Source of the DNA: Psammoneis japonica
Lineage: Eukaryota
Length of the DNA stretch: 64,000 bases
Direction: 5' to 3'
Assembly: GCA_008632985.1 (NCBI GenBank)
Contig: QPGO01000161.1
Span: 62,001-126,000, forward strand
In this document: in pieces, positions 11,557 through 63,917 of the stretch
Numbering within the stretch: position 1 is the stretch's first letter
How the letters are laid out: every line of letters starts with the position of its first letter
Translations under genes and position numbers: made by a program
Notes under the pieces: model-generated
Databases searched by the model: none
What the model was told of the DNA's origin: nothing
The model's input: only the letters and a program-made list of their open reading frames with translations

Positions 11557-11568
11557 ATTTGGGAAGCA

Positions 11569-21233: not shown

Positions 21234-21340
21234 AAGATTTGGTCAATTCTCCAACTGTGAGATTTTTGGCATTAAAGAGAGGTTTGAAAATTTTCCAACG
21301 GCGAAAATGACTGGGACACAAGGCATGGAGCCACCCACAA

Positions 21341-27726: not shown

Positions 27727-28114
27727 TATTTTCGAAACGACCGGTGATGACGAAACAGCAGTTCACCCACCTGGACGCACGAATGCAGGTGCTTGCCACC
27801 AAATGTTCGATGCAATCCCATTCGGTGACTCGCAAGTGACCTGGGATGAGTTGGTTGAGCACCTGAAACTTGCTGATGCAGGCAACCTCCCCTCGTCCGT
27901 CGTTGAGTTACAGTCACACGAGTGTCCTCAAGAACTCATAAATCCCAAGCAGCGGCTGTCTGTTCTACACCCAGTGAACAGTTTGCGCCCTCTCAGTCGA
28001 GAGACTGAGGCCTTTTGCAAGAAGGTCCTCTGCGATGCACTCAAAATTAAGATCTAGTTTGAGTTCCAACATGTTGTCTCCAATCCATTTGTAATTGCAC
28101 AAGAAAGTCTGGCA

Positions 28115-35777: not shown

Positions 35778-38700
35778 CTGATAAGACGCATGAGTGTCGT
35801 AATGATAGAATTTTGTCGTCATTCTATTGAGGCACAGAGATGTGCATGGTGTCTCCTGAGGTCTTCGACATTTATGTGCATTGCATTAGCCAAATTATGA
35901 TGTGAAAAGCTGTTGCAGCTCCATGCGTGAGTGCTGCTGCAGGAGCCATGTGTTGCATGAAGAATCTGTCCTCCACATGTGGAAGGAACAGGCACACGCC
36001 CATGAGCTGCATGTGCTCTTAGACATTGTTCGGCAGCAGTCAGTCAAGTTCACTCTAGAAACTCATTCAGAGGTCGACATTGTGGAAAAGTCTCCATCAC
36101 CTCACAGTGCTGCAAACTGCAATCGTCTGTTGCTGGAGGGCCAAACACAAGTGCTGCACTGGTGCATGAGCAGGATTGATGGTGGCGCGATCCCCTCATT
36201 TCTCTCTCATCTTCTGCCAGCATCACATGGGCAAACTGAACCAATCTCATGCATTGGGTGGTGACCCTGACCCCACTTTCACCCCAGATTGATGAAATGT
36301 GTGAAACACACCCCTGTTTTGTGAAACACCCAAGTGACAAGCAGTGGCTTGGGTTGTCATGGTGCTTTTGACAGTCAAGCTGAGCAGTTTTTGCTGTTTG
36401 CACATTCAAATTACACACGCACTGACAGGGAGTGTTTGCTTCCGGAATGCTGCAGGTTTTGATCCACAATCAACCATGACTGATGACAGACCAATGACTG
36501 AGTGATCAACCCCTGCTGTGGTGGATTCCACACAAAATGTGGGGCAATGAGCAAAGCTGTGTGGTTTGCACAACAAAGCATGTGTTTTGCAGAACAACAC
36601 ATGATTTTGTGATCCCCCCTCCACCCACTTCACCGCAGAGGTTGTGCCCAATGCACGAGATTAATTCAGCACACCCCATGCTGTGATTGCTTCCATTTCA
36701 ACCATGTTGGCGCCATGTCTGAGACCCATTTGGATTGTGCACCTCTTTGTTGTGTTTTTTTTCATTGGGCAAGATAGAATCTTGAAAACGTTGCAAAAGA
36801 AAGCTCAAGAGGCCTGCTGAAAGCCCCTCAAGCTGCAAGTGGAATTTTTTAATTGGTGGCTTTGTGCAGCACACAAGGAAGCAGAACTCAACATTTGGCA
36901 ATGCACAGAGCACTTGTCACACACCTTGCAAGCAGCACAATGTTGCACAATCATTGGTTTTGCCCCAGCCAAGGCAACAGTTGAGCAATTTGCTCACTTT
37001 GTCAGAGCTGACACTGTCTGACACATGGCTGGTGCAAAGCGAAGCAGCTGATGCTGTTCAACGCACAACTGGTGCAAAGCAAAGCAGGTGGTGCACGTGG
37101 ATTGCACCACAGGCAACATCATTCCCTGAGAAGCAAGAGACAATGCACTGGCATCAATCCACAAATGAGATTGACAAAGCAGTTGGCAAGCTTGACTGAC
37201 AATGTCGCTGAAGCTGGAACTGTGTTCATGGACAAATGGTGATCTCAGATGGAGAGGAGCTTTGGAGCAGGCTCTCCCCACTTCACAATGGTTCTCACAG
37301 GAAACACAAAGACTGTTGCACTCCCCAAAATGACCACAGAAGCTTGCAAGCAAAGACCTTTTTTCAGCAGATTGCATCAAAAACTGCACACAACAAGAAT
37401 TCTTGGAACAGAAATTAGACCTCTTGATGCATGAGACAAGTTGTTGGGAACACTTGTGGACAAAACAACAGCTCTGTTTGACAACAGATCTGACAAAAGG
37501 GGGCCGACAATGTCACTTGCTTCCACATCTGGGCAGGCTGAAAGACAGAGCAAAAATGACAGAAGTTGATCCATTCAGATGGACTTGGGTTTGATTGAAG
37601 CAGGGCATTTTGACACATTTGATTGACAAGATGCCAGCCTTCAAAGGTGGCATGTTTGGTCTTGTTTCCCATGGCTTCCTGCAAGCTGCCATGATGCAGA
37701 GCATTGTGGAGCAAATGTTGCACAGCTCAAGCAAAAAGACCATGCTGGGAGCAACAAGAGCTTGCAGCTGGGAACCACAACTGCAGCTGTCATGCTGCTG
37801 CCTTGAGCAGAAATTCATCAATGGTGCAGGGCTTGGGAGAAAGTCTTGGGGTGAGTCAATCCAAGCACAAAGAGATGCCATCTGCCATCTTGACTCCAAC
37901 AATGAGCAAAGCAGGAAGCACTGCAGCATCAAACCAAACAAAAGTGGGCAAAAAGAGCTCATCTTGGTTTGGGTGTGGTTGAAATTTCCCATTTGATGGA
38001 CCAACCATTGAGAACATGCCATCTCATCCAAAACTTGAGGGAAAAAAACTAAATTGGACAATGCAATGCTCGGAATGCACAACATTGGTGTGAAAGGAGA
38101 ACACTTCTTAGAGTGTGAAACAGAGCCACATGCACCAACAATGGCGGCAGGCTTGCAAAACTGATGGGGAGATTGTCAAGTGCAGCAAAACCCCCAAGCA
38201 GGGACACGCGTCATTTTTTTGTTTTCAGACAAACCTTGCTGCTCAAAACTCCTTTTTCACAAATTGAATCTCTGCAAGACATTGACCATTTGTTGCAGAC
38301 ACTTCACAACAAATGGACAAACCAAATGAACACAGAACAAGTGCTTTGCAACTCAACACACATTCAATGGATGTCCAAACAGCAGCACAGTTTCACTGTT
38401 TGGCAGCTCTCCTTTTGACACCCTTCTGTCATGGAGACAAAATTTTGCCGTGGATGACAAATGATGACAACAAAGAGCAACAAACAGAGCCGAAAGGTGA
38501 CAAAGGGAGACAAGTTCAAAACAAGGCATCCAAGATGCACAGACAGAGACAACAGAGACAAATCAATGAAAGTCAAGATAAAATGGGCTCTTTGGCTCTT
38601 TGCTGTGCCATGCAGTGGCAGTCATTTTGCAGCTTGGCAGGTGACATCACATGTCTGTCTGTCCTGTCATCAATCAATTTGTTGGTTTTGTCTCTGTCTG

Positions 38701-40064
38701 GCATTTGTCAGTGCCACCACACATCCATCTGTCTCATTGCCAATCAATCCATTGGTTTTGTCTCTGTCTGTCTCCATTGGAGACACAATTTTCCTGTCTG
38801 TCTTGTTTGTCTCTGTTTGTCATGGTTTTTTGTTGTTTGTCATGGTTTGTTGTTGACCACAAATTTTTGTCTCCTCCACTTGTCTCATGAAAAATGCTTT
38901 TGTTTCAAAAATGGAGACAAATTGCCAAAAAAAAATTGCTTGCTGAGTGAAGTGATGCACACGTCAACAGGCAACATCAAAGTCAACCTTCACAAACATG
39001 CGCATGTGCAATCATTTGTTTGTCCTCAACAGTCTTTTTGCTGAAACTTTTTCACTCAAACAGGTCATTGCACCAGACAAATGTGCAGGACCATGGACAG
39101 CTTTTTTTAGAAAGTGAGACAAATTGCCATGTGTCCCAGAAGATGTGCATCAGCCACAGACAAGATGACAAAACCAAACTTGGCCGGCGGTGTTCAACAT
39201 GCAGTCACCACAATGGGGGCATGCTTTGAAGTAAAGAAGTGCATCATGACTGCCAAAACCCAACAAATTGCAAGTCAGAAGATGACCAGCAACAGCAGTG
39301 TTGAATCACAACAAGGGGCTGGCAAAAGGTGCATGATTTTTGGACAATGGCGGGCAGGTGGGAGGGGAGTGGTGGCAGTGAGAGCATGTTCATTGCATGA
39401 GATGTAGAGGGAATGCATGGAGAAGAATGAAAAAAAAAAGGACAACATTCACATTGCCAGTGTGGGAAAATGAGTGGCAAATTTTGCTGGTTTGAAGAAA
39501 ATGACCTTGCTGGTTTGTTGCACTGCAGGTGAAACACCAGCAACAGACATTGCCAGCAACAACCCAAGTTGGCAGAAGCGCACCTGAAAATGTCTTTTTC
39601 AATTGGCGGGTGATCTCTGCACAACACAGGTGATTTTGTGAGCTGCAAAGTGATTGACCCAAGAGATGCCAACAACTGCAGTGCTGTTGATGCAGAGGTT
39701 GAGAAGCAACCAACCAAGAGGGCAATTTCTTTTTCTTCTTTTCTCTCTCTCTTGAACAAAAAAAGGCAGAGCCAACATTCCACCAAATTTTGCTAACACA
39801 GAACAAAGAGCAGCCAAGGCAGGTCCCACTGGTTTGGATGTTTGTCCAGCCACACTCAGAAAATGGCAGGCACAACTGCACTGGTCAAAGTCAAGAGCAA
39901 GATTTTCATGGTGGCTTCATCAGTGGCTGGCTCTTGTTGTTGACATGTGGTGGTTGAGGCTGTTGTGTTTTAAAAAGATCCAAGGTGCAGTTGTTGTTGA
40001 GGGCAGGACAGATGGACGTGCTTGAAGGACTGCTGGTTTTCAAATCTCTCATGCTGGGTCAGTC

Positions 40065-40067
<3 letters not shown>

Positions 40068-40132
<65 letters not shown>
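40068..40132 (+). repeat. (TC)n microsatellite
   Basis: Perfect dinucleotide run. Confidence 1.
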
Positions 40133-40136
<4 letters not shown>

Positions 40137-40313
40137 CAAACAAAAGAACAGTCAAAATTGGCAAAGTCACTTTTCTGTCAAATGTGACAAACACAAACAA
40201 TGCTGGCAGCTGGGGCAATGAGAGCACCCCCAATCGAATGTTCATCCAAGTGTTTCACAAATGGCAGGCACAACAACGTTGGCCAAAGTCAGGAGAATGA
40301 GACTTTTGTGGTG

Positions 40314-40670
40314 TTTGTTCAAGAGAGACAGAGAGATGGGAATTTTGAACCAAATCATTCAAATGAACTCATCCATCCTCCTTTGGATCTTTTTGATGCA
40401 ACAACTTCCACCACATGAACAACAGCAGCTGGGTGACAAACAACACTGGGCTGGTGGCTGAGGAAGAGCTGCTTCAGTTGGACATTCATCTGACTGTTTC
40501 AGCAAACAACAGGCACAACAACATTGGCCAAAGTCAGGAGAACAACACTTTTGTGGTGGCTTCATCAATGGCTCAATGCTGTTGTTCATGTGGTGGAAGT
40601 TGTTGCATCAAAAAGATCCAAAGGAGGATGATTTGGTTCAAAACTCCCATCTCTGTCTCTTTTGAACAAA
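40314..40670. repeat. Inverted repeat, arms 40314-40427 and 40577-40670
   Basis: catcctcctttggatctttttgatgcaacaacttccaccacatgaacaacagca and its reverse complement. Associated 33-bp direct repeat at 40265 and 40510. Confidence 0.9.
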
Positions 40671-40739
40671 TGGCCAAAATTGGCATGGCAAACAAATGAC
40701 CCCTGTTTGCAATTCGACAGGACAAAGCTGGGAGGGGGG

Positions 40740-41700
40740 CATGGGAGATGCAAAGTTTGTGGCAGGAAAGAAGATTTCCAAGGTTTCTTTGCAAGCAGCT
40801 GCAACAGACAATCATGTGGTCAAGGCCAACGTGTTGTTCAGTGCAACTTGAAAGGTTTGGGAGGGGTTGTGAGCAGGGAGGGGTGGCCATTGTGCCCTTC
40901 CACAGCTGCTGTGGTTTGCTTGATGGCAGATCATTTGGGTGACAAGGGATGTGCAAGAATGTGGGATTTGACTGGGGCGGGTTCTTGATTTGCTCTGGTG
41001 GCATTGCCAAAGATGAGGTTGCACGGCTTTTCAAGAGTGGCTGCAGTTTGCTGGGCTTGTGGCCTTGAGCTTGAAGTTGAAGGCACAGTGTTCTTGTGTT
41101 TGCTTTCGCATTGGTGGCATCAGAGCAAAGATTTTTGAAGCAAAAGAGCATGCCCATGATTGATCAGGCCAGTGAGTGCTCCAGACGGATGAGCCAAGTG
41201 GGATGGCATGTGCACACACAAGCTCATTTCTTTTTTGCAGAGGGGGGTGTGAAGGTGGGAGCCTTGGAGCAAGATTGTGAGGTCCACACAAAGTCAAATT
41301 GGCAGCTTCAGGCTCTCGTGATTCAGGTGATGTTGAAGTCATCAAGCCTGGAGGCAAATGCATCCCATGTGTTGGTGGCAGTGTCTGAGTTTTGCCAGAT
41401 GCCAAAGACATTGTCAATGAGTTGTTTGCAGCAAAACAGCTGGGAGCCAAACTCCTCTGCAGCATGTCTTTGCACAGTGCGCAGCACAAAGAAGCACATG
41501 GAAGGGTGGGTGGTGTGCCCCCCTGCTGCCAGGTGGTGTCCCCAAATTTAAGTGCGTCATTTTCCATCATGATTCAGAGGGCTTTCATGAGGGCATCCAT
41601 TGGTGTGTTGTTGCAGTTGTTTTCATGATGTCAAAGACAGGAGGCAATCAATCACAGCACTTTGCTGGCAGGCATGTTGGAGCAGCAGGCCTTGACATTG
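40740..41700 (-). pseudogene. Penelope-like retroelement reverse transcriptase remnant
   Basis: MENDALKFGDTTWQQ..GTPP, LIDNVFGIW (xxDD motif), HMPSHLAHPSGALTGLI, FLHIP(Y>C)HPND, RNLGNLLS in shifting frames. Confidence 0.6.
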
Positions 41701-42489
41701 GACGTGAAGAGGAGGCATTGTGGTGCCATCTCCATTTGGATGAGGGCTTCTTTCAGGTCCAGGCAGGGAGCTCTTGAAGCATGGTTGTTGGCAGCAAGCA
41801 ACCTTCTGGAGCTGGCGGGGCAGGAGGTTGGTTCTGCCTTGGCAGTTCACAAGAAGGTTGGTGACTTGTGTCTTGAAGGCAGTGCAGTGGCATTTGACAA
41901 TGTTGGTGAGTTTCCAAGGGGGGGTTGTGTTGGACCAGAGGTGCATCCTTGGGCTGCAATCTCTGTTGTCATCATTGATTGGTGCACTGGCAAAATGCCC
42001 GCATTTGTTGAGGTCTTGTTTGAATTGTCCAAGTGTTTGTCCTCAGACCTTGGAGGACATGCCATTGTTGGTGAAGTGTTGTGTTCAAACAAATTTCAGA
42101 CTGAGAGACAAAGTGATGGTTGAAGGTTTTTTGGTGGTTGTTTCATCGCAGTGCAGTCATGAAAGGCAAGGTGTGAGGGCCTGCTGAAGTGGCACCAGGC
42201 AGGCATGTTTTGCAGGCAGGTGCAGGCATTGTGTTGCAGTGTGCAAGATGGATTGGCAACGAGTCTGTGCGCACAATGGATTCAGTGTTCAATTGCCTCC
42301 AGCACCTGTTCTGACTGGCACGTTGGAGAGCTGTTGCTTCTTTTTTGATGGCTGTCTCAGTGTGGAAATGTGACAATTGTTTTCGTTGGTGCTGCAGGTG
42401 TTGTTGTTGGCATTGTTGGCTTTGCAAATGTGCCGAGGGCATTGTTTCCTTGATTTACCTGCAACAAGACACCTTTGCCTTTTGCTTTT

Positions 42490-42717
42490 GTGGCTGCCTT
42501 GATGGGCGCTGAAACTGGCTTTGGAGAGCAGACGAATTTCTTGGTTGCAAGCAAATTGCTGTTTTTGACATTGTCCAGTTGCCACCGGCTGACAAGGTTG
42601 GTGTGTTGAAGGCCATCCACACCATGGAACGCTCATCCATCTGGCATGTGCGCGGCAGGTGTGCACAATGGCAAGCAACTCCCCATTGCTTTGATTCTTG
42701 AAAAACCAGCTCAAATG
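42490..42717 (-). pseudogene. 3' piece of an older Plavaka transposase, continuing from 56064-56420
   Basis: WFFKNQSNGELLAIVHTC and LQHTNLVSRWQLDNVKNSNL match CFFQRESDGDLHAVVHPC and MQHTDLVSRCQLDQVKNNNL of 15713-16696. Confidence 0.8.
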
Positions 42718-43465
42718 CTTGGTTTGGTTTTGCCGTGTTTTTGAACAAAATTCCCCGGGATCACCACCTTTTACCCTGTTTTTCTACGGAAAGGGTGAAT
42801 TCCCGGGGAATCGACACGAGTTGCCCTTCGTTGCATGCATGCTTGGTGCACGAATGAAGAATTGCACATCGGCAATTCCCCGTGCTTCCCCTCTCATACA
42901 TTTCCACGTGTTCTGCGTGCCGGCACGTGCGGAGCCACACATCAGACATCAGAACTGAAATCAACAATCGCAACAAAAATGGGCAACATGCCATGGAGCG
43001 GCTTGCACCCCATTTGTGACGGCTTTTGTCCAACAATGATGACACCAGTCAATCCAGTGAACAACATTGCGATCGACAGCATAAAACACAAAATGAATGG
43101 AAGCTTGACAGACCATTTTTAGAAAAAAATGGTGCATTGACAGATCGTTGCACTCATTCTTTTGTCGTGCGGTCACAAGTGCAAGCCATGTGGTGTCTGC
43201 AGCAAAATCCAAGGCAAAAGCAGAGCTGTCCATGGCAAACAAAAATGTGGCGGATTGAATGGTCTTGCTTGTTTTTCCAGTCGACACATCTCATGTTCAG
43301 AATGAAGCGGATCATTTAGAATCACTGTTGTCGTCCAGCTACAAATGCAAACCATGAGGCATCTAAAGTGAAGGCTCAGGCAAAAGCAGAACCTCGCCAG
43401 GCTAAAAAAAACATGTCAGATTGATCATTCATGCTCATTCTTTCCTTTGAACTGTCTCATTTGTC

Positions 43466-43744
43466 TGCCGAGTGTCACGGTCATCAATGTTCATTCGTGG
43501 ATGTCAGCATGGTGTCAAAAGTGTCAAAAGGATGTCAACGATGACACTTTCTAGAAACCTCTTCTCTTTTCTTGATGCATCTCGATGCCTCTCAAAAGAT
43601 TGTTTCTTTGTGTTTCTGCGCAGTTTCTCAGCATTGATTCTGCCAGATTTCGGAGTGGCCGAATCTCTTTCATTTCTTCTCACAACATTGGCAACAGTCC
43701 ACTTTACAACGCCATTTTGTGCAACTGCTTGGCGCCACTTGGCA
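43466..43744 (+). repeat. 5' LTR
   Basis: TGCCGAGTG...CACTTGGCA; direct repeat of 47923-48214. Confidence 0.95.
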
Positions 43745-43786
43745 CAGCAAATTCACTCCCAAACACTTGTCCATCTCTCTCAAGAC

Positions 43787-44912
43787 ATGTCTGCCGACCA
43801 CATTGTCCTGACCAGACATGTCAGCAGAAAACTGCCCAATCGAACTTGAGCGTCCTGATCACTCTGAAGAAGAGCAACGCAAAGACCAGTTTGTGTCTTT
43901 TGAAAGCCCCGTTGATCCTGACGATCCAGATGGGCTTGAAACTGCAATCAAGGTGCAAAAGCTGGCTTTGACTGAACCGGAAGATGTTCTTGCCTTCTGG
44001 TCAAACTTCGACGAACTTGTCGATGACCTCGGAACGGCTGAAGGACAGTCACGTTTCCGACTTGTGACCAGACTCATGACCGGAACACCAAAAGACGACT
44101 GGGAAATCATCGCAAACGAATGCGAAAACCGCGACCAAGACACATTCAACACTTGTCGCAAAGAATTCCAACTCCAGTGCACGCACAGAGAAATTGCCCT
44201 TGATGCCAAGGAATGGCTTCAAAGTCTTGAGAAGCCCAGAAACCAATCTGTCAAGTCATTTGTTGATGACATCCGTCGCTTTAATGAGTTGATTGGTGTC
44301 ATGCCTGCACCATCCGAAGACGATGACGAAAGGGTTCCGTCATTCACGGAAGCGGAATTGTCCGTGATCCTTCAAAAATGTGGACCCAGATCATGGGCCG
44401 AAACTCAGACCAAGGCTTGACTTCGCAACTTGGGCTTGAACGACCAAGCTCAATGCCACGAGAGTCTCCGATGCATGGAACAACATGGTGACAAAAGATC
44501 TGCCGACAACAACAGACGCAACAACAACCGGAATCGACGCAACAACGGTCAAAATGCGCGTCGTGGCCAGAATGACAACCAAAATTGCGACACCAGGAAC
44601 AAGAACCAAAACAACCATGGACAACCGTGTCCGATCCATGGCGTTGTACATCCAAATGGTCAAGAGTGCAATGTCACCCGTCGTGAACATGAAAATTACA
44701 AGCGGAATCATGCAAATTGGAGTGTGCCGAATCAACAAAATGACTCTCAAAGCAAACCAACACATGGCCATCCAACACGGAGTCGCACACGGAACGTCAA
44801 AAACAACAATGTGGACTCCAGAGCCAATCGCTCTGCTTCAAATGACACCGATGGCATCGTGTCAGACGACATCAACGATGTTTTTTTAAGACGTCACGTC
44901 TCTCCCAGATGA
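43787..44912 (+). pseudogene. gypsy gag-like gene
   Basis: Helical gag-like ORF after the 5' LTR, Asn/Arg-rich linker and CPIHGVVH...C knuckle-like motif. Internal TGA at 44418. Confidence 0.75.
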
Positions 44913-44929
44913 TCCCACTGAATCCGAGG

Positions 44930-47901
44930 TAAAAGACAACCTTGCCACGGAAGCGCGTGTCCAGATGATCGACACTCATTCTGGAATGCATGAGTTCCGC
45001 GTTGCTTTGCTCGACACCGGCGCAAATCGCAACTTTGTGAAGCACTCAGCCCTTCATGGAATTCCTCACAAAATCTGTAAATGTGACATTCCCGTTAAAG
45101 GCCGTTGCAGCACCATCGACCTGCGCGAGATTGCGACGCTGACGTTGAAGTTTCCAGACTTCGCATCATCCAAGAAGGTTTCCGTCGATGCTCATGTAGA
45201 AGACAAAGCCACAGGAAAACACGACATCATCATCAGAAGAAAAACCGCCACAGAAATGGGACTCGTTTTTTATTTTCGACATCAAACAATCACGTGGGAC
45301 GACGTTGCCCCATCCATGTGATCCAAGGGCTCTTTTGACCAAGTCGAGGTCAATGCAGTTCATCCCGGCGATGCTGAATTGCCCAAGTTCTTCCAGAACA
45401 CCGTCAACCGTCAGATTTGAGGTGTGATGAGCAATGCTTGCAACAAACACAATTGTTGTGACATGGTCTTACACTGCAAACACCTTGATGATGATCAGCA
45501 GCACCAACTCATCAAACTCTTCGGACGACATCCGCAATCATTTGATGGTGCGCTTGGAGCTGCACCAGGAAAACCCGTTCATTTGACCCTGAAACCAGGA
45601 TCACGTCCATGCTGCATGAAAGCCTGCACCACTCCGCAGGCGTCACATCCCATGGCTTGTAAAGAAGTGGACAAATTGGAAAAAATTGATGTCATTGCAT
45701 AAAAACTCCATTCTCCATGGGGAGCACCCTGTCTTTTCCGATCAAAGAAAAGCGGTGGCATCCGTTTCTCACCCGACTTGCAAAAGCTCAACGAGTGTCT
45801 TGAACGGCATCCATGTCCGCCACCTGTTGTCGACGACGTCGCATGGAAAATGAACGGATTTACCTTTGCAACTTGTCTGGACCTGAATCAAGGTTGCTGT
45901 CACTTCGTGCTCGATGACGAATCAAAAAAACTCTGCGGTGTCATCCTGCCGTGGGGCAAGCATTGCTGCAACCGCCTGCCACAAGGAATCAAACCAGCAA
46001 GCGATGTTTTTCAAGCCTGCATGACAGATGTTTTTCATGACATGGAAGACATCATGGTCTGCATTGACAATGTCATCCTCTTTGCCAAGAACGACTTCAA
46101 TCATCACTGCCAATGACTTGAACTTGTCTTGCAGCGGCTCCTCGCGAACAATCTTCATGTGCATGTTGAAGAATCATGTCTCGCCGCCAAGACCGTCAAC
46201 TGCTCAGGCTGCACCATGACTGCGAAAGGCGTTCAACCTCAGAAAAAGAAAATCCTGCCTTTGCTTTGCTTCGCTCGCCCTCAGAACCGTCGACAATTGC
46301 GTGGTTTCATCGGGTTCGTGAATTGTCACAAGAAATTGTGGCACCGACGCAGCCACACTCTCATGCCCTTAACTGCGCTGTCATTGGACAAAGTCAAATT
46401 CAAGTGGACTGACGTCCACGCCGAAGCCTTCAACCAGATGAAGAAAATTGTGGCGCGCGAAATCCTCCTCCGATTCCCCGACTTCTCTCGACCTTTCAAG
46501 ATCTATCCGGATGCGAGTGATTGTCAACTTGGTGCAGTGATTGCTCAAGATTTTGATGATGGCGAATGGCCAATTGCATTCTACAGCCAAAAATTGTCTC
46601 TGGCACAGCGAAACTACACGACGATGGAAAAAGAACTGCTGTCGCTCGTCGAGATGACCGAAAATTTCAAGAGCATCCTTTTTGGCCATTGATGCTGCCT
46701 TTTCACCAATCAAAAGAACCTTGCATTCGACAAATTCAAGTCAGAGCACATCAAACGCTGGCGTTTGCTTCTCGAAGAGTGTGATTGCTCTTTCGAGTGC
46801 TTGTCAGGCCACAAGAATGTTGTGGCCAATTTTTTGAGTCGCTGTCCCATTGTCCAAGTCGATCAAAGCGACTGTGAGGAAATGACTTCATTGGAAATCA
46901 ATCCTTCGACATTCTCTGTCACTTTCGACATTGTCGCCGACCATCAGAAAAAAGATTCTGCTCTCCAGCAGCGACTCGACAAGTCCGAAACCCACTCAGC
47001 CGAACCACTCAACAAAAAGCAGATTGTCCTTCGCAAGGACAAGATTGTCCTCCCTCCAACGCTTTTTCCTGCAGTCCTACGTTGGTGTCATGAAACTCTC
47101 TGTCATCCTGGTGCCAATCGCACCTGTCAAACCTTGGCTTCACATTTTTACATCCGTGACATGCAGATGAAAGTCCGCACTTTTGTCCATCAGTGCCGCG
47201 TGTGTTCCAAATCCAAGCGCATTGCAGCAAACTACGGTGAGCTGCCTCTCCCAGATGCTGTCTACAAGCCTTGGCAAGCAACTCAAGTCAATCTTTTCGG
47301 TCCCTGGGCATGTGCCGATAAGAATGGCATTGATCGCAAAATCAGAGCCGTTTCGATTGTTGATGTTGCAACCCACTGGATTGAACTCGCAAACCACAAG
47401 TCCAAAACGTCCGAAGACATTTCACTTGTGGTCGATCGCGAGTGGTTTTGTCGCCATCCGCGACCAGAAATTGTCATTTGTGACAATGGCTCCGAATTCA
47501 CTTCCGAGTTTGCAGATCTCCTCTGCAGTTGTGGTGTTAAACCGAAGCCTGCAACGATCAAGAATCCTCAAGCCAATGCGTTCGTTGAACGCATTCATCA
47601 AGTCATTGCCAATTCTCTCCGTGCGATGGATCTCCCTTCTCGCGATTGTGATGAAGACACGATTCGTGGAATTTTGCAATCCGTTGCATGGGCCTTGCGC
47701 AGTGCCTGCCACACTGCCCTTGTGTCATCTCCCGGACAAATTGTCTTCGGTCGAGACATGGTCATTTCAAAACACAAACTCAACACCAAAGATGGTCCCT
47801 TCCGTGTCGCACGTGTCCACACCAATGGAACCGTTGCCATCCAGCGCTCGCCTCACGTCACCGAACGTGTCAACATCCGCCGTCTTCACCCTGTCTTCTA
47901 A
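44930..47901 (+). pseudogene. gypsy pol (protease, RT, RNase H, integrase) with stops and frameshifts
   Basis: LLDTGA; LDLNQG..H; RLPQG; (Y>C)IDN; DASD.QLGAV; RNYTTMEKELL; H..LCHPG...C..C; DNGSEF; PQANAFVERIH. Confidence 0.95.
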
Positions 47902-47922
47902 CGTCTCAATTGGGGAAGCGAG

Positions 47923-48214
47923 TGCCGAGTGTCACGGTCATCTGTGTTCATTCGTGCGTTCATTTGTGGATGTCAGCATGGTGTCAAAAGTGTCAAAAGG
48001 ATGTCAACGGCGACACTTTCTAGAAACCTCTTCTCTTTTCTCGACACATCTCGATGCCTCTCGAAAGATTGTTTCTTTGCATTTTCTGCACGGTTTCTCA
48101 GTGTTGATTCTACGAGATTTCGGAGCAGCCGAATCTCTTTCATTTCTTCTCACAACATTGGCAACAGTCTACTTTACAATGCCATTTTACACAACTGCTT
48201 GGCGCCACTTGGCA
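47923..48214 (+). repeat. 3' LTR
   Basis: Direct repeat of 43466-43744, preceded by the PPT. Confidence 0.95.
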
Positions 48215-49086
48215 TGGTCACAAATGCAAACAACAAGGGCTCTAGAGCAAAGGACAAGGCAAAAACAGAACCTCACATGAGCAATGTCAATGTGGCTGAT
48301 CTAATGGCAAAGTTTCTTCTTTCCTTGCTCTTCCACAAGGGGCTGCTTTGTGTCGATGTGTCGATGCAATCATTGTCGTTGCATCGTGTCGCGTCGCTCG
48401 CTCGAGCCTCCAGCGCTCGCTCGGTCATCATGGTGATAAAAGTGCACCCGCCTGGCTGTGTTTGCCGCACATTGCCGCACTCCATTCGTTTTTGTTCCCC
48501 TCCCCTGAGCCCTTTCAGGCGTTCCTTCCCGCAAAATTACCCTCATTTCCAGGGATTCCCCCAAAAGGGCAAGGTAACTCCCCCTCACCCTGGCCATTTT
48601 GGGGAATCCCCAAATGGGTAAAACCACATCAGAGCGCGAAATGTGGTGATCCTGACCACCCTTCTCATGGGTGATTTTTCATGCTGTTGCAGGTGTGAAT
48701 GCAAAGGTTTCATTTTGAGAGAGTTGGGTGGACCATGATTTTTTGTTGCATGTCACAGCACACCATTTTTCACTGTGGGAACCCTCCTCATCCTGTGGGA
48801 TCCCACCCTCAACCATCAGACTGCCGTCCCTTTGCACCTTTTTAAAGCGAAGTTCAAAACGTTTTGTTTGACAACAAATTGGTGGTGCTGATCATTGCGT
48901 TTCTCGGGTTTAAAGAACCTTCCATTGCAAACACTGGTTGTCAAATGAAAGGTTAGATCACACAACAATGACCCCTGAAACACTTTGTCAAACCTTGTAA
49001 CTGTTTGCATTGAAACCTGCTACATTGCTTGTCCGCTTTCCATTCTCACACTGGCAAAAGCCTCCGCTGCCTTTTCATGCCGCAGC

Positions 49087-50325
49087 TCACTCATTGCCTG
49101 CATCTGCGCTCGTTTTGCTTCCCGCATCACTGTCTTCATCCTCCTCCTCGCTGTCCTCATCTCCTCTGTTCTTGTCCGTTGCCTCTTCCTCCTTCTCCTC
49201 ATCATCACTTGAAAGCTCCATTGTTGCCTGTGTTCTTGCCTCCTTTTCCACCGGCTTTTTCTTTCTTTTTGATCCCTTGCCTCTTTCGTCACTCTTCCTT
49301 TTCTTGCCTTCACTGCACCATGTGTTGAACTGCATGCCCTCCTCACTCAACATGTCTTTCTTTGCTTCTGCAAGCAGCTCGTTGAATCGCAATGTCCCTG
49401 CATCCTTCCACGAGTCGCGTTGCCTTGACGGGTCCGTGTGCTTGGGTGTTGGTTCCGACTCTTCCTCATCCTCTTTGTCTGAGCCTCCCCCCGCTCCAAC
49501 AGTCTTGTCATGATGTGCCTTGTGCTCCCAACTCTTCCAGCAGTTTTCCAATGTCAACAGCCCCAGAGCCTCGTCGCTTGCTGCAGCCAGACCGGTTGCC
49601 TTCGTCTCACCCAACTCTGCCTTCCTTCTCCATGTCGTGGTGCTCTTTGTGAATTTCAGGATGTTTTTGTAGAACCAAGCACATGCTTCCTTGTTCTTGC
49701 GCTTGTCCTCCACAATCGTTGTCACTGTCTCCTCCTCCCAAGTTGCCAGGAACGGCTCTTCATCTTCCGTCTTTTCGTTCTTCTTCCTCTTCTTGCTCTT
49801 CTTCCCTCCTCTGCCTCTTGCTGCCGGCTTCTTCTGACTGTGAATCTCCTCGGCTTTGTTCTCTGTCAACACGACTTCAGCAAGTTAAGGCGCAGCAGTG
49901 TCAAGCACAACTGCACTCAACATGCCGTGCACCACAAAACACTTGCCAGCCGTTGCATTGTTCTTGATCGCCTGAGTGACCGTGCTCCTTTTCGCGTTAA
50001 TTGCACACATGATGCACTTCTTTGCCGAGTCTTCCCACGCTCCTGCCCAGTCTTGCTTGCTGCAATTGCCACCGTCTGTCTTTTTCCTGATGAGCCGTGA
50101 CACTTTGCCACTGCTTGCCATGTCCGCCTTGACAAGGAACTTTGCCTTCGGGAAAAGTTCCTTCCGTGCCACCTCTTCTGCCTCTCTCATCATAGACTCT
50201 TGATCCCCAGTGGCTCCCACCCGCACCAACGCCGCGGCCAGCCTTGGGCTGGTTGGTTGATCTCCAGCCACCCCCGCAGTTTCTTTCTTCTTCTTCCTTG
50301 CCATTGCCTGTGCCACTGTTGCCAA
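49087..50325 (-). pseudogene. Copy of the Plavaka accessory gene
   Basis: Near-identical protein to 21341-22575. The stop at 49885 falls within the predicted intron. Confidence 0.8.
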
Positions 50326-50779
50326 TTGTGGGTGGCTCCATGCCTTGTGTCCCCAGTTAATTTTGCCGTTGGGAAATTTTCAAACCTCTCTTTAATGCTA
50401 AAAATCTTGTGCTTTCCACCAATGATTCTCTTTTCTCAAATGCAACACAATGGAGAATTGACCAAATTTTACAATGCATGTGCAATTTATTTGTTTTGCC
50501 ACTCCTTGTCATCTTTTGAAAATTTTGAATCCCTGCGAATTCCAGTTCAAACCTCACTTTTGCTGCAATGTCAAAATCCACTTCCACAGTGTAAACAGCA
50601 TGCACAAGCATTTTGCTCAAAACATCATTGTGAAAACGTGCACCTGCAAAAGTCATTTTTACTGCAATGAACAAACCCCTCACCTGCTTCAATGACATTC
50701 CGGTTTGCTGTTGGGGCCTGAGCACATTCATCCTTTTTGGTGCCAAATCGTTTTTTCTGGTCCAATTTGTCATCTCCCT

Positions 50780-53526
50780 GGTGTCGTTCCGACAGCGGAA
50801 AACACGGGTTTGTCCACAAGAGAAGCCAAGAGACATCGTGGGCAGTGAATTGTCGACAACCAAGACAACACAGCACAAGACCGACAGTCGCATCACGGCC
50901 GAACGCTCCTTGCGAGCCGCCGCAACCTTGGTCATTCTATGCGCCGATATGATGTTTGTCGATGGGGAAGACAAAGCGTTTGAAAACGTGGTCCCAAACT
51001 TGACCACTGGTGCAAAAACCTTTCTCGACCTTGTTGAAGGCTGTCGTGGAAACAAAGCACATCCAATGAGCACTTCCCTCAACATGGGAATGGACGACAC
51101 TGGGCTTGCTGCCACAAAAGGCCCCCAACCTGGAGACCCTTTAGAATGGCGCGTTGTCACTGCCTCAGAGTAAAACTTGCCATCACAATGGTTGCTTCTG
51201 GAGAGGCCGCACCAGTCATGTTGACGTTCAAGAAGATGACGGAACGTCAACTCCCAAAAGGACACACGAAAGATGCACACAGCAATGAGGACGGTGTACA
51301 TTTAGTGGACGTGCACGGGCTGTGTCCAGGAGGTGACACGAACATTGATGTTGGCATCGGCTTTGTCCTGTTCATGAGGGACGACATTGACAAAGCTGAG
51401 CTCAAGCGCATGGTGATGCATCGCAAGTTTGTCCATTTGCCCCATGTGCAGAGACAGTGTCACAAGTTGCGAGGCCGCACGGGTGCCTCAGACCAAGTGC
51501 ACACTGAAGACGAGTGCAGCGTTCTTGTCATGGATGGTGACCGTGGACAAAAATTGATGCAAACACGGTTTCCCCAGAAGCGACGAAAATTGATGACAAA
51601 GAGAAGATGACCTCCGGCAAGACCAACCCTGCAAGGACCGGATCGAAAGCGTCTTGTGATCAAGCTGATGTCTTCAGCACTGCAAAATCCACCCTGAAGA
51701 AACAAGCCACTGCCACAGAGTGAGACATCCATTCTCACGCAAACAAGTTGGAGGCCACAAGAGCCCTGGAAAAGACTCCCCTTCAGCTGGCAAAGGACAA
51801 GGATGCAATCATCGACTCACTTGCCAAGCTTCTGTCAATCCTGACTCAGTCGTTGCAACGGAAGAAGATTCTGAAGGGATTCGTGGTCTCTGGCATCATT
51901 GACCAGAAAACTCTGCGTTGTCCTGATTTTGAATCCGTCATGTCTGCTGTCAAACGGCAAGTCTCCCAAGAAGAATGCGATCTTTGCCTCTGATCCTTCC
52001 CCACCTTGATGAAAGCATGGGATGACAATGGGGGTCACATCCCCGAAGTGGTTTTTGATGAACTCGAGTTCCCCGAGAACCGTGATCCCACCGGGAACAT
52101 GCACCGGCATGATGCCGGCATTTCACAAGAACCCCTGCAGCGTGCCAAACTTCTTAACTCTGCTGGTCAAAGGGCAGCCCGGAAGGAATGACAGGATCAC
52201 CTGCAGGCCGAGAAACAGGCAAAACTTGTCCATGAAATTGCAGCGCACAACAAAGCACATGATGAAGCTGTGGCAGCGGAGTCCAAAATGCTGGACATGA
52301 TGAGCAGCAACGAGAGTCTTCAAGTTGTGGCTGAGTCAGACGGACCAATTGTGGCACAGGCATTGATCGACATGTGCGCAAAACTTGCAGTTTCGCAGTT
52401 GCAGTCATTTGTGAATGCACGCTTCTTCCGATCAATGAAAGACAAGCCATCAAAGTTTTGTGCAAACAAGGGTGCATTGGCGGAGGCAAGGGATGAATCT
52501 GAGAATGACGAAAACTCTGGCAGGCGGCTCGACTCCCCACCGACTTCGCTCGTTCACAAGCTCATCCACTCATGCTACAAGGCTTGGCACCTTCCTGTCA
52601 TTTGTGAAAAAAAGGAACTGCCCAGTGAGACCACAGCTCCTGCTCCTGTCCTTCCAGCTGATCCTGCTGACCATGAGGTTGGGCGTCCGCTCCATGAGAA
52701 TCCGATGTGGCAAGCGAGTGCAGTCAAGGTTGCAGACGATTTCATGTCTTTTGGTCTGGAGCAAATGCAACAAACCACTCAGTCAGCTCCGATTCTGATG
52801 CAATGACTCGAGACACACAAATGTCAGTGACTCAAGAACTGTGACACTCACCGCAACCACTGGACACTCCAATGGGCAGAACAGAATCTACCACTGATGG
52901 CGGCTGTGATGGTCAGCCGTGGCCACATCCTCCCAAACATTGAGTTTCGGAGCGGCACTGCATCCTTGTTGCTCCACCCAAAGGCACAGTCTGAGAACAG
53001 CACTGGAGATCATCTCATGAAGGAAGGTGCCTGCAGATTGTGTCACTTCTGCACACCCGTTAGGTCAGGAAAGAATTCAGGTGCCAATGCAAATTTTGGA
53101 GTGCAAGACGATGAGCATCTAAAGTGCTCTGAGCTCACTGAATCAAAGCATGCCAACAATGCTCTCTGTTCCTTGCACCCATCCAAGGAAATCGATCGAG
53201 ACATGAAAGAGCAAATCAAGTCACAACAGAAAGGATGGCACGAGGATCTTGAGATGGTCATGTTCTTTGGGTGGTCACGCAGTGACAAAGACATCACAGA
53301 TTTGCTTGCCTCAGAAGGCCCTGCTGGCTTGTTCCAATGGGATGCCGAGACCTTGAAACACCTGGAAGAGTCTAAAGTCTGTGGCACTCTTTGGTCCAAG
53401 AAATTGGCGATGGTGGGTCATCTGGCTGAGCTTGCCTGCAATCTCTGTCTCGGCGAAGACAACATCTCTAATTCCCCTGGATTCAAAAGTTTCGGATTGC
53501 TTCAGATTCACTTGAACAGGACCTAG
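50780..53526 (+). pseudogene. Degenerate pogo/DDE-like transposase with a C-terminal GIY-YIG-like region, within element B
   Basis: Chain of collinear plus-strand ORF pieces: RVKLAITMVASGEAAP, VLVMDGD, KTNPARTGSKASCD (PxxTxxxQPxD-like), then GA(Y>C)...VRSGK...DEH...NISNSPGF. The family call is inference. Confidence 0.45.
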
Positions 53527-56063
53527 AGACAAATGGTGTCCCTCTGCAGCTTTGACAGCTGCTGTCTCACGCGCATTGTCCTCCAGTGCGGAGCTGTCTA
53601 CACACGGGTCAAAAAGAACAATGAACTGTGTTGGTCTCAGTGCCAAAAGGGGACACATGATGCACAACTTCTCAATCAACACTTGCCTTTTGCACCAAGT
53701 TCTAATCAAAGTGGTGGCACTCTCTGCCAGAGAGTTCATCCCATTGGCAGAGACTTCTGCGCTTGGGCCGGTGCCATCTTCATCACTGTGTGGCTTTTCA
53801 CACACTGCCGGCACCGTGCTCCCCACTTCCAGCAGAGAAATGTCTTTCCTGTGTCTTAGAACAGCAGATCGGCAAGTCATCATTCAAATGGTGCACACAC
53901 ACAATCTGCTGGGCCTGCAGCATGCACATGGTGCGTGCCATCCAGAAGCAACAGCACTTGCGGCTACACTCCATCCCACATTTTATTGAACAGCCACACA
54001 TCTCTAATCTAGAGACACTGAGCACTCCAGGATCTGATTTCCCCATGTGAGCAAAGAGTGTCAAAAGACATCGATCATGTAGAACATGGGCCTGGAAATG
54101 CCACTGCAAGCTTTAACGGTCAACGACAGTCATGCTGGAAAATGACAGGCAAAATGAAAACATGAGAGGAAAAACGCACACAGCAACAATCCGTTGGGGT
54201 TGCACAACACAGTGTGCTCACTGGGGCACCTTTTGAAGGTGGAGCTGAGTTGCCTTGCCAATTTTTATGCCCCCAAGTGCCATCAGCGGTTCGTGGCATC
54301 CGCACATTCAAGAGGAGGCAATGAGCCCGCCAACACAAGCCTCAACCTTCACATTTTGCCCATTGCAAAGCCTGGAGTCGTAGTTGCACCACAAAGATCT
54401 CCCAAAATAACGTGGACAATATAATGTCTTAGACAATGATGACAATGCGGTTGAAGGGCAGGTGGAAAGGGTCAAAAAGGACCAGATGCCTGCACGCATG
54501 ATCGAGACGCACCAAAAAAGGATCGTTGGGCAGGCAAGTTTTGTCAAAACAAGTGCAAAACTCAATCAATCACAACACACTCACAGGGTCACCTTCTTTG
54601 GACTGTGGCAAGGCTGTCTGACAAGTGCCAATGTCGTGAGCATCCCCAAGACTCTATCGCATTGTTTTGTTTACACTGCATGCACTGTCAAGAAATTGTT
54701 GTCACCGAAAAACGACATGCTGTGATTGCGAGCCGACCAAGACATCCAAAAACACATCAAGCTCGTCACAAGTCCAAATGAACAGTGCAAATAGATGTGC
54801 CAAAGGACAAAGAGTGAGATGAAGCATGAGGCTCCCAAACGGATGTGCTGTGGTGGCGCAAATGCCACGAGAAAGACACCAACATCACAGATGCAACAAT
54901 CAACCATACGAGACAATCAATCGACCTCACACGCTGCAACAAAAAACAACAATGATCTTTGGTGAACAGGAAAACAACACAAATTGAGAAAACACAAAGA
55001 GAACTTGCCATCGCGACGTTGTTGACCAATCATGCGTTACACGCACCCTGCAGCAATCGAGTCACGAGTCGAGGCACATTGCCGTTTGCACCGTGTGTCA
55101 AAACCAAAGCCCCCCAGAAAACCAAACCAATGCATCAACCTCTTCACAACAATGGCAGAAAAAGATCCCCCATGAAAGACACATCAACCCAACGATGCAT
55201 GCCATGGCAAGATGCATCAAAGTGAAACATGCCATTTTTGATGCAAAATCGGGACCGGTTGAGTCCAATCAAATGATTCGACTCTCGCACTTCACCGTGG
55301 TGAAATTTCAGTCACGGATGCCGGGACCGGTTGAGTCCTCCGGCAGCTTTGCAGTTGTGCTTTTGAGCTTGGGTTTGAATGATTCGAACCCAAAACCATT
55401 GGTGAAATGTTCCATTTCATCAAAATTGCAGTCCTTGGAAATTTGGAAAGAAGGGTCAGGGTCGACCTCGTCGTGAGACGGGGCAAAGTCGTTGGACGCC
55501 ATGGCCAACAGTCAGATGCCGATTCACGTAGAATGCACAGGAATCACAACAGCACACCCTCTTGTCAAATGCTTTTTGGGGAGAGGGTGCACTGTTGTGA
55601 AATGGGCAGAGCATTGCGCATGTAGAAAAGGCACCAAAATGCAGGTGGGGAGCTGTTGACTGGAAAACTGGTGGGTGCAGGTGGAAACAATGAGCCAAGT
55701 GCTCATGTGGCCAATTTGGGCGCAAAAGAAACACCCTTGTCTGTGGTGACGTGGTGACGCAAGGCTGCGGTGAAGCTGTTGAAAAGCACTGTCAAAGTTG
55801 ACGTTTCTGTGAACATGTGACAAATTGATCAACACAAAAAGCATTGTTCAACAATGAAAGATTTGTTGAAAGTCTTTGGCAACTTTAAATCAAAATAAAA
55901 TGGTGACAATTGCCGACATAAAAAGGCAACAACAAATTTAACTTGACTGTTAAAATTGAAACTAAATTTGCCTGACAACAACATGCTTTCATCAAATTGA
56001 ATGTTCCAAAATTTCCAAAGGAAAGTGAGCAACACCACATTGCGGCCTCTGATGCAAACCAAG

Positions 56064-62600: not shown

Positions 62601-63917
62601 CAAAATTAGAGCCGACGCGAACCGAGCTTGGACAATGGAAGACGGTCAAGTCTTTACTAAAGCACTTGAGCGCCTTGAGGTAAGCTCCATGGCTCAAGTC
62701 GAATTCATAGAGGAGCCCTTGAAAAAGCACGTTGAAGATACGAGTAAATGGTCATTTGCTATCCAAGTGAAGCAACTTGAGGAGTGGTACAAGCTCACCG
62801 GAATACGTTACGCGCTTGACGAGACCTTGGCTGATTTGGCAGAACAATGTGGAAATGACTTCGAAAGCATGAAGAAAGAGATCGAATACGCATTCGCAAA
62901 CGAGACGATTGGCTGTGCCGCTTTTGTGTTGAAGCCCTCACTGCTTGGTTTGGAGTTGTCTCTTCGGCTTGCGCGAATGGCTCATGAAGACCTAGCCATC
63001 GGAGCGGTCTTTTCGTCATCCTTTGACTCTGGAGTCGGACTGGCGTACATGTCGGTTCTTGGTGCTATTTCCGATGCCGGAAAGTCGATAAGTCCATCGA
63101 CATTATATGCTCATGGAGCGGGAACATTTAGTCTCCTTGGAGCAGATACACTCTCTCCACCGTTTGCGTCCTACGTCGATGATGCAGGCGTGCTGAACGT
63201 TGCATCATTGTCTAGGGCATTGTATGGTCTAGGCCTCGACGAAATGAGGGAATCTTTGGCAATGAGACTGCCAGAAGAGAAACTTGTTACTCGGACAACT
63301 ATATCCCAGGATACCGAAGACTTTCAATCGTCTGCAAAAACAAGCGGTAGCGGTAGGGAAATCAGCGTTGTCGTATCTCTCCCGCTCCCATTTTCGGACG
63401 ATATCGCCAGTGCACGCTTCACGGATCTTCCTCAAATGTCTCGTTGGTCCCCGTGGCTCAAATCGGTGGCGTATCTTGACGGACGAGAGACGGAATGGAC
63501 GCTAAATGTTCGAGGCGTGGAGCTGTCTTGGAGAGCTGTAAGCACAATCTTGACAGAACCACATCGTGGTATCATGTGGGAATCCGTTTCGGGGTTGAAA
63601 AACATGGGCGTAGCGGAGTTTATCCCCTCATCGGAGGATTCGTGCACAATGAAAGTGAAAATGACCATTGTGACCCCCCGGGTCCTTGCGGCCCTCTTTC
63701 GTGGCACTTCTGTTTTCATTGAAGACTTTCTCCAAAACAAATTCTCAAGTGGAGTCTTGAAATGTTTCGCGACGTTGTCAAAGGGGACTTGGCACTCGAA
63801 CGAGGTGATGTAGAGCTTGGCGATGCGCTATTCGGCGCAGTAGAAGGAAGAGCAAATGCTATTGAAGCGTCCTTGTCCTATCCAGGAGACAAGGAAATAC
63901 CAACTCAAGACTTTTAA
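56696..63917 (+). CDS. PHYLLO: Plastid-targeted PHYLLO-type multifunctional phylloquinone biosynthesis protein: MenF-MenD-MenH-MenC plus C-terminal SRPBCC/polyketide-cyclase-like domain
   Basis: Signal peptide + ASAF. MenF: KVVLARR, TPERL, EALAGT, LHPTPAVCG, YAGAGIV. MenD: CPGSRSTPL, DERAAGF, LTADRP, NRGASGIDG, GD..NNDGGGIF. MenH: LHGWMG, DLPGHG, GYSLGG, AGH. MenC: KVKVG, DANRAW, IEEP, LDE, LKP. Two apparent 1-nt deletions (~57420 A-run, ~63742); corrected stop TAA 63915-63917. Confidence 0.93.

Follow-up and report, generated by a model that had tools for sequence, protein, structure and literature searches.

Loss of conserved tyrosines and TpA steps from a gypsy retrotransposon and other mobile DNA in the diatom Psammoneis japonica

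The gypsy element and its conserved tyrosines

We analysed 64,000 nucleotides of the diatom Psammoneis japonica (NCBI GenBank assembly GCA_008632985.1, contig QPGO01000161.1, positions 62,001 to 126,000 of the forward strand; the whole stretch is called the window below, and all positions refer to it), with emphasis on positions 45800-47720, where conserved tyrosines of a gypsy pol gene were originally predicted to have been turned systematically into cysteine or histidine. This interval lies inside pol of a Ty3/gypsy (Metaviridae) long terminal repeat (LTR) retrotransposon on the plus strand (Table 1). The two LTRs stand in direct orientation and have TG...CA ends, as is required of an LTR element, and a check for a target-site duplication found that the 5 bases flanking each LTR end match at 4 of 5 positions. 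In a single frame of pol, the Pfam families RVT_1 (21.5 bits, below the cut-off), RT_RNaseH_2, RT_RNaseH, Integrase_H2C2 and rve follow one another, which is the order of reverse transcriptase (RT), RNase H and integrase that marks Ty3/gypsy elements; the relatives hold all these domains. Identity to the 8 closest relatives (P0121-P0128) amounts to 47-51% across 868-991 aligned positions, again in one frame.

The pol frame from 44890 to 47898 is interrupted solely by five in-frame stops, at 45319, 45418, 45700, 46114 and 46690; where the window has the stop at 46114, the 8 closest relatives without exception have Arg. The gag region is read in a different frame, and the single gag-pol open reading frame (ORF) of about 1420 aa in the relatives points to a probable frameshift near 44890-44912 between the two genes. 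The polymerase box at 46060-46071 reads C-I-D-N and is no longer an intact YIDN or YxDD box. This gypsy copy is a dead member of its family and not a working element. The original prediction had described the box as YIDD changed to CIDN. The D to N part of that description does not hold, since Y-I-D-N, replacing the usual Y-x-D-D, is native to the clade of this element: it is present in 8/8 closest relatives and in 9/108 homologs, while 99/108 have D at the last position.

Table 1. Features of the window and their positions
Feature	Position	Strand	Remarks
5' LTR	43466..43744 (279 bp)	+	direct repeat with 47923-48214; limits taken from the alignment
gag region	43812..44912	+	one in-frame stop; weak Retrotrans_gag match (E=6.9e-4, under the Pfam cut-off); from ORFs
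pol	44890..47901	+	one frame; protease-like part, RT 45703-46113, RNase H 46117-46689, integrase 46693-47898
Tyr to Cys codons in 45800-47720	45895, 45898, 45967, 46060, 46201, 46210, 46324, 46786, 46798, 46843, 47086, 47530	+	at least 75% Tyr in the 8 closest relatives
Tyr to His codons in 45800-47720	45961, 46327, 46993, 47395, 47455	+	at least 75% Tyr in the 8 closest relatives
Retained TAC codons in 45800-47720	46582, 46615, 47233, 47263	+	at least 75% Tyr in the 8 closest relatives
Purine run, polypurine-tract-like	47912..47922	+	directly 5' of the 3' LTR; putative function, from position alone
3' LTR	47923..48214 (292 bp)	+	279 positions aligned with the 5' LTR, 15 difference events
Plavaka-like DNA transposase remnant	15716..18748	-	CRAHPDC motif near 16150; from homologs, with Pfam Plavaka in homologs
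TA-depleted domain	1001..30000		TA observed/expected 0.00-0.22 per kb almost throughout; 0.41 beside the N gap
TA-depleted domain with the gypsy element	36001..56000		TA observed/expected 0.00-0.22 per kb almost throughout
Host gene, isochorismate synthase/MenD/MenH/MenC fusion (Men/PHYLLO-type)	57421..63810	+	Pfam domains; diatom homologs

Relatives were gathered with the stop-free integrase ORF as query, in two listings of 120 each (240 in total). The first 120 homologs served for composition only and were kept out of the alignment, which comprised the pol of the window, with X at its stops, and the 108 homologs of at least 900 aa from the second 120; the 12 shorter ones were omitted. The 8 closest relatives have unbroken ORFs, seven of them 1415-1441 aa long and one 924 aa. 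A column was considered conserved if agreement reached at least 75% among the 8 closest relatives or at least 60% among the 108 homologs.

Measured against the 8 closest relatives, tyrosine is kept at 4 of the 27 conserved columns of the whole pol, compared to 379 of 505 columns of other residues (Fisher p=3.1e-10). The lost tyrosines have become Cys at 16 columns, His at 6 and Phe at 1, and 22 of the 23 changed columns consequently carry Cys or His. Within 45800-47720 tyrosine is kept at 4/22 columns (Cys 12, His 5, Phe 1) and other residues at 268/354 (p=7e-8). The 108 homologs give a similar picture for the whole pol, with 3/26 tyrosines kept (Cys 12, His 6, Phe 3, Trp 1, Val 1) and 284/466 other residues (p=5.4e-7). 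The composition of the protein reflects this: the pol of the window contains 0.70% Tyr, 4.81% Cys and 4.71% His, against means of 3.96% Tyr (minimum 1.72), 1.56% Cys (maximum 3.57) and 3.15% His in the 120 homologs. The systematic replacement of conserved tyrosines was therefore correctly noticed.

Cys or His is not what the relatives natively carry at these positions: the 8 closest, all intact, and nearly all of the 108 homologs have Tyr. At GYYH, G.Y.Y, YID, WYH, RYPRP and the second Tyr of NYY it is present in 8/8 closest relatives and in 105-108 of the 108 homologs (108/108 for the Tyr of YID, which is Cys in the window), and at the remaining confirmed columns in 78-107 of the 108, with Phe as the chief alternative. 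Conversely, conserved Cys or His columns have turned into Tyr at 0/22 positions by the 8 closest relatives and at 1/18 by the 108 homologs. Because the closest relatives carry Tyr and not Cys or His at the affected columns, the direction of change that had been proposed, TAY to TGY or CAY (Y, pyrimidine; R, purine), can be assigned. As judged from these homologs, the loss of Tyr from the gypsy pol goes back to transitions from A:T to G:C within TpA, and the amino-acid read-out yields its direction without an ancestral DNA copy.

The individual motifs on which the prediction had been built deserve separate mention. Twelve of the 16 listed sites (two each in GYYH, G.Y.Y, YLGY and NYY, one each in YID, WYH, RYPRP and SYG) are Tyr in 7-8 of the 8 closest relatives. 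The other four (PCP, DASDC, EEC and ACH) vary between Tyr and Phe in the relatives and are plausible, not secure. Cys had further been said to be clearly more frequent than His. An excess is present, 16:6 in the whole pol and 12:5 inside the interval, although it amounts to a trend only (binomial p=0.052 and p=0.14, respectively).

Depletion of TpA and the influence of flanking bases

If TpA is what is attacked, steps that span two codons should be hit as well. At conserved columns, 17 residues with an A-first codon have been replaced by residues with a G-first codon (I>V 11, T>A 5, N>D 1), and in 15 of these 17 the codon is preceded by T. For comparison, T precedes 34 of 104 retained G-first codons (p=1.9e-5). 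Among retained A-first codons, T stands before 1/78 and C before 41/78. With T before 15/17 of the replaced codons and before 1/78 of the retained ones, T|A across a codon boundary has thus been converted, in any frame, in one of two ways: to T|G with a change of residue, or silently to C|A. The TpA change is a property of the DNA and not of the protein, and the erasure is blind to codon phase. These replacements also bear on the expectation that other TA-linked exchanges would be in excess. They are present, mainly as I>V and T>A, whereas the I>M (3) and I>T (1) exchanges that had been named are few.

At the level of dinucleotides, the gypsy element contains 31 TA in 4749 bases, an observed/expected ratio of 0.098, while its CG ratio is 0.95. 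The TA-depleted DNA of the window, 45 kb in total, has 253 TA against 3021 expected from base composition. Decay of CpG had been said to be unable to produce the change, and we agree: C>T chemistry cannot yield TGY or CAY from TAY, and CG is close to its expectation in the element. Two other processes were considered and rejected, namely polymerase-eta-type mutagenesis at WA (W, A or T) and plain GC-biased conversion. AA, TT and AT are not depleted in the window (observed/expected 1.26, 1.28 and 0.86), and Lys has become Arg at only 2 of 32 conserved Lys columns.

CpG decay has nevertheless taken place in the window. CG is low in the older islands, 6 of the 13 CpG sites of the LTRs differ, and the stop at 46114 stands where the closest relatives have Arg. 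In the older islands, 1001-10000 and 36001-42000, the TA ratio is 0.00-0.09 and the CG ratio 0.00-0.21, except for 0.36 in the first kilobase. Since the older islands have lost both TA and CG and the gypsy element has lost TA only, TpA erasure precedes CpG decay.

The same pattern had been claimed for a Plavaka element, and the ORFs at 15716-18748 on the minus strand confirm it. They have 407 homologs at E<=0.001. Pfam Plavaka scores above the cut-off in 3 of 4 scanned full-length homologs and just below it in the fourth, while a fifth homolog (571 aa) has no match; matches of protein atlas features also lead to Plavaka, at lead strength only. The Plavaka-like copy contains 0.20% Tyr compared to 2.0-4.7% in 15 homologs, and Tyr is kept at 2 of 9 conserved columns (Cys 3, His 3, Arg 1), other residues at 185 of 246 (p=0.0017). 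Plavaka is a DNA transposon without an RNA stage, and the same loss of Tyr in such an element means that editing of RNA or of reverse-transcription intermediates is not the general cause. A further transposase, of the MULE type (ORF 29463-30425, minus strand, Pfam E=2.2e-9), is located at the border between the depleted domain and the less depleted region around 30-34 kb, where TA observed/expected is 0.51-0.70 (30001-34000).

Could the element simply be native in this respect, its family naturally carrying Cys or His, or TA being avoided through codon bias or as an escape from a TA-cutting nuclease? The host DNA is itself moderately poor in TA (observed/expected about 0.45-0.5 in the host gene), and one supposed mutation, the D to N of the polymerase box, did prove native to the clade. 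Against this stand the near-universal tyrosines at the six motifs named above, in the closest relatives and the 108 homologs alike, as well as the indifference of the erasure to codon phase. Moreover, five in-frame stops and a Cys in the YID(N/D) box argue that there is no selection on this copy to stay functional. We consider the probability of a native or selected origin to be practically negligible.

The surviving TA steps are not distributed evenly over their contexts. We divided them into the classes YTAR, YTAY, RTAR and RTAY and compared the 45 kb of depleted DNA with 12 kb of genic DNA, expressing survival relative to the genic share. Relative survival was 0.47 for YTAR (110 TA surviving in depleted DNA, 59 in genic DNA), 0.16 for RTAR (60 and 83), 0.11 for YTAY (75 and 151) and 0.01 for RTAY (8 and 124), and the class counts of the two kinds of DNA differ with a chi-square p of 2e-24. 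YTAR was the best survivor and RTAY the worst in 5/5 sub-regions. The mixed classes lay between them with the exception of the gypsy element, where the uncorrected TA share of RTAR (6 survivors) is slightly under that of YTAR (8 survivors). At the level of single words, TTAA is not visibly depleted (ratio 1.1), and GTAT, ATAT, ATAC and GTAC are down to 0.01-0.03. The erasure of TpA thus depends on the flanking bases: RTAY has nearly vanished, YTAR is largely spared, TTAA most of all, and YTAY and RTAR take a middle place. Viewed per strand, an A followed by a 3' pyrimidine is a good target. The tyrosine codons that remain fit into this scheme, all four in the gypsy pol being CTAC and both in the Plavaka copy TTAC. 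The excess of Cys over His, itself a trend, may have its reason here, because the sense A of a Tyr codon always has a 3' pyrimidine, and the antisense A only where the codon follows a purine.

How far does the depletion reach? Next to the second depleted domain lies the host gene, a single unbroken ORF of 2130 codons with no sign of introns, which is 59-66% identical to its best homologs over residues 60-720. Among the 120 homologs listed, every named one comes from a diatom (Bacillariaceae, Cylindrotheca, Mayamaea, Skeletonema, Epithemia, Amphora, Thalassiosira, Cyclotella and Cyclostephanos). Its TA observed/expected is 0.40-0.56, compared to 0.098 in the gypsy element. Within this one window, the erasure is confined to mobile and repeat DNA, and the neighbouring host gene is spared.

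A practical consequence concerns gene prediction. There are 175 stop-free stretches of at least 110 codons on both strands of the window (1-64000). Pfam found no match in 123 of the 125 long ORFs outside the gypsy element, the two exceptions being the MULE transposase and the host gene, and a relaxed scan of six long ORFs gave nothing credible, so that the greater part of the depleted DNA is without annotation. The change of TA to TG or CA destroys TAA and TAG and makes no stop save through TAA>TGA, and the length of an ORF in this DNA is therefore no argument for a function. Dead repeats with long false ORFs may mislead gene callers in this genome, and the drift of Tyr to Cys or His reduces the profile scores of transposon domains. 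One ORF of 623 codons without a family match contains three tandem 48-base repeat units (14262-14441, 76-86% alike). Two other peculiarities of the window are an assembly gap of 452 N at 27275-27726 with AT-richer flanks (GC 0.39-0.40), and strong strand skews of purines and pyrimidines at 20001-23000 (GC +0.28, AT +0.28) and 48001-51000 (GC -0.26, AT -0.28).

Timing of the erasure and possible mechanisms

The two LTRs of a retrotransposon are identical at insertion, so that their differences date from the time after it. Along the 279 aligned bases of the present pair, the 15 difference events include 5 doublets with TG in one LTR and CA in the other, 3 sites with TA in one and TG or CA in the other, 5 of CpG type and 3 others; the TA-linked share is 8/15. 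TA is shared by both LTRs at 2 sites only. LTRs that were alike at insertion and are now split between TG and CA must have been converted independently, each in chromosomal DNA and after integration. A model with one rate for all LTR sites failed: 2 sites with TA in both LTRs, 3 half-converted ones and 5 doublets fit no single conversion probability, which we ascribe to heterogeneity of the sites by context.

A second line of evidence comes from a public run (X1), whose contigs include the stretch of the window and which is possibly the source data of the assembly. Contigs of this run match the window exactly across 166-208 bases at a depth near 55, and related copies occur at summed depths far above this value, the family being multi-copy. 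The related copies differ from the window at 138 positions, 131 of them transitions. The 40 listed differences correspond to 36 events: 4 TG/CA doublets, 6 with TA in the other copy against TG or CA in the window, 1 in the reverse sense (a retained TAC of the window is TGC in the other copy), 12 of CpG type and 13 others. Among the copies, homologous sites are read as TA, as TG or as CA. We count this in favour of a conversion that was probably independent in separate copies of the family. Three contigs of the run join 43449-43455, to the left of the 5' LTR, to 48212-48215, at the end of the 3' LTR or just past it, and omit the element; these could be empty-site, solo-LTR or paralogous flank copies.

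It might be argued that the signature is an artefact of sequencing or assembly, TA being miscalled as TG or CA where bases of repeat DNA are modified. The sequencing platform is unrecorded, and the run that contains the stretch may be the assembly's own data. An explanation of this type would nevertheless have to accommodate the exact matches at a depth near 55 in the run, the related copies in which TA is evidently readable in the same context, and calls that are consistent across 45 kb with a rule of four flanking classes. In addition, the same signature has been called from Illumina data of mutation-accumulation lines of Bigelowiella natans, according to the main text of a preprint (Mettrop et al., bioRxiv 10.64898/2026.01.13.699255). 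An artefact is therefore very unlikely.

Editing at the level of RNA or of reverse transcription, by an ADAR-like or APOBEC-like enzyme before integration, would have supplied the element with its changes at insertion. The ratio of sense A>G (Tyr>Cys) to T>C (Tyr>His) of 16:6 is what editing of the sense RNA predicts, and ADARs favour U before the edited A, as the Discussion of the same preprint states (bioRxiv 10.64898/2026.01.13.699255). However, LTRs start out identical at insertion, and the present pair now shows 5 TG/CA doublets as well as 3 sites with TA in one LTR and TG or CA in the other, which largely refutes the idea. T>C is also common, as seen in the 6 Tyr>His changes and in the C before 41/78 retained A-first codons, and a Plavaka-like DNA transposon as well as unannotated repeat DNA show the same erasure on both strands. 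We regard pre-integration editing as extremely unlikely.

By rough arithmetic from the survival of Tyr (4/27) and the LTR counts, we estimate about 1.5-1.9 events per site and lineage at TpA, about 0.3 at CpG (7 of the 13 LTR CpG are unchanged) and about 0.005 elsewhere (3 others in 279 bases). This indirect estimate corresponds to a TpA erasure about 5-6 times as fast as CpG decay and roughly 300 times as fast as background.

We therefore come to a reading that we hold to be very probably correct: the Cys and His residues reflect, in coding sequence, a process that acts on DNA after insertion, is specific for TpA and converts it into TpG or CpA. It struck the integrated chromosomal copy of the transposon on both strands and in any reading frame, and erased about 80-90% of the TpA steps of the element while leaving CpG near expectation. 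Several observations weigh against this reading or limit it. The process is deduced throughout from one 64-kb window and one run, and the latter, possibly being the assembly's own data, does not count as independent support. CpG-type events make up 5/15 of the LTR events and 12/36 of the listed paralog events, and 13/36 of the latter fit neither class. Some conversions may be older than the insertion of this copy. The genic baseline of the flanking analysis merely stands in for the composition that the repeats had ancestrally. With both elements pooled, the ratio of Cys to His is 16:5 for codons that follow a pyrimidine and 3:5 for those that follow a purine, a difference that reaches p=0.08 only. 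The ratios of TG to CA products per context class differ little from those of genic DNA, which leaves a strand-specific reading unproven. As these ratios are near the genic ones, recognition of RTAY as a double-stranded word is also possible, and we treat the strand-specific model of the flanking rule as a hypothesis only.

Could adenine itself be the base that is attacked? Enzymatic deamination of adenine to hypoxanthine in DNA is the likeliest chemistry, and we give it an about even chance. The deaminase would be aimed at silenced or repeated DNA and would act there as a genome defence. The same erasure of TpA could also proceed by another chemistry, either through a modified thymine of the 5-hydroxymethyluracil type, made in silenced DNA by a TET/JBP-like enzyme and mispairing with G, or through a TA-specific error of a repair polymerase. 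In the former case the modified thymine would be the precursor lesion. TpA is self-complementary, so that sequence alone cannot tell A from T as the target, and a 3' pyrimidine after A is a 5' purine before T on the other strand. On the other hand, errors of the polymerase-eta WA type should erase ApA as well, in conflict with the AA ratio and the rarity of Lys>Arg given above. The authors of the B. natans preprint favour adenine deamination, as a hypothesis only (bioRxiv 10.64898/2026.01.13.699255). A chemistry other than adenine deamination seems unlikely to us.

Comparison with known systems

Repeat-induced point mutation (RIP) of Neurospora and other fungi changes C to T at CpA in duplicated DNA, gains TpA, raises AT and creates stop codons. 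It depends on sequence duplication and is tied to the premeiotic stage of the sexual phase. The erasure described here resembles RIP as a storm of transitions at one dinucleotide in repeats, which kills transposons and leaves LTR pairs and paralogs different at the target dinucleotide. It runs in the opposite direction, however, with TpA lost, GC rising and no stops made save through TAA>TGA; the direction is fixed by the 108 outgroup homologs. ADAR acts on double-stranded RNA and APOBEC3 on retroviral cDNA, that is, on RNA or replication intermediates, before integration and on one strand. Clusters of deamination-type transitions in selfish elements are common to both situations, but here the LTRs differ at TA-derived sites, TG and CA both occur as products, and a DNA transposon is hit. 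CpG decay by deamination of 5-methylcytosine likewise feeds TpG and CpA and marks silenced repeats. Its chemistry, on the other hand, is C>T, and in the gypsy element it lags far behind (CG 0.95 versus TA 0.098).

The closest parallel is found in B. natans, a chlorarachniophyte (Rhizaria). In its mutation-accumulation lines, according to the preprint's main text (Mettrop et al., bioRxiv 10.64898/2026.01.13.699255), the integrated DNA of a giant virus and of a virophage acquired 231 new mutations, 230 of them A>G or T>C. These 230 were at TpA without exception, and the rate was about 1000 times the background. Among the TpA-poor coding sequences of this species, reverse-transcriptase and DDE domains are over-represented, and the authors propose an ADAT2-like deaminase, unproven there too (bioRxiv 10.64898/2026.01.13.699255). 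In both cases A:T turns into G:C at TpA to give TpG or CpA, foreign or mobile DNA is hit next to ordinary host DNA, and the change takes place after integration. The two cases differ in several respects, as far as the preprint's main text describes its own. New mutation was observed in B. natans and its rate measured; in the diatom both are deduced from sequence, and the rate of roughly 300 times background is an indirect estimate. The targets in B. natans are two integrated viruses in which TpA still accounts for 3.3% and 9.2% of dinucleotides. In the diatom, both the LTR and the DNA transposons are near saturation, with TA observed/expected about 0.1 and 0.00-0.03 in older islands.

Full-text searches of the literature yielded no report of such a loss of TpA, either in diatoms or in transposons, the matches being the B. 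natans preprint and papers on fungal RIP. In the main text of that preprint, supplements aside, the words diatom, retrotransposon, tyrosine, flanking, context and trinucleotide do not occur (bioRxiv 10.64898/2026.01.13.699255), and there is no statement on TpA in the passages on diatom DNA methyltransferases of PMC9998398 or in the passages of bioRxiv 10.64898/2026.07.24.739820. Within these sources, the gypsy case would be a second instance of a very recently described kind of TpA hypermutation, whose only prior description we found in B. natans.

A bolder proposal is that diatoms own a mutator dedicated to genome defence. It would be a DNA adenine deaminase that is directed to silenced or repeated DNA, prefers 5'-TAY-3' and rewrites TpA to TpG or CpA until transposons are dead, and it would be the same system as in B. 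natans and hence old and widespread in the SAR (stramenopile, alveolate and rhizarian) supergroup. We offer this proposal tentatively, as an idea that is rather more likely to fail than to hold. If true, it would be the A>G counterpart of fungal RIP, erasing stop codons where RIP makes them.

Independently of the enzyme, the findings would, if confirmed, represent a second and phylogenetically distant case of TpA-directed hypermutation of selfish DNA, the first in diatoms, which are major primary producers, and the first with transposons rather than integrated viruses as the clear target. What the present analysis contributes is the polarity from 108 outgroups, a test that is independent of the reading frame, the timing by LTRs, a DNA transposon as control, the rate in relation to CpG decay, and the flanking rule. 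This last, with RTAY erased and YTAR or TTAA spared, provides a fingerprint that can be compared with the new mutations of B. natans and with the specificities of candidate deaminases.

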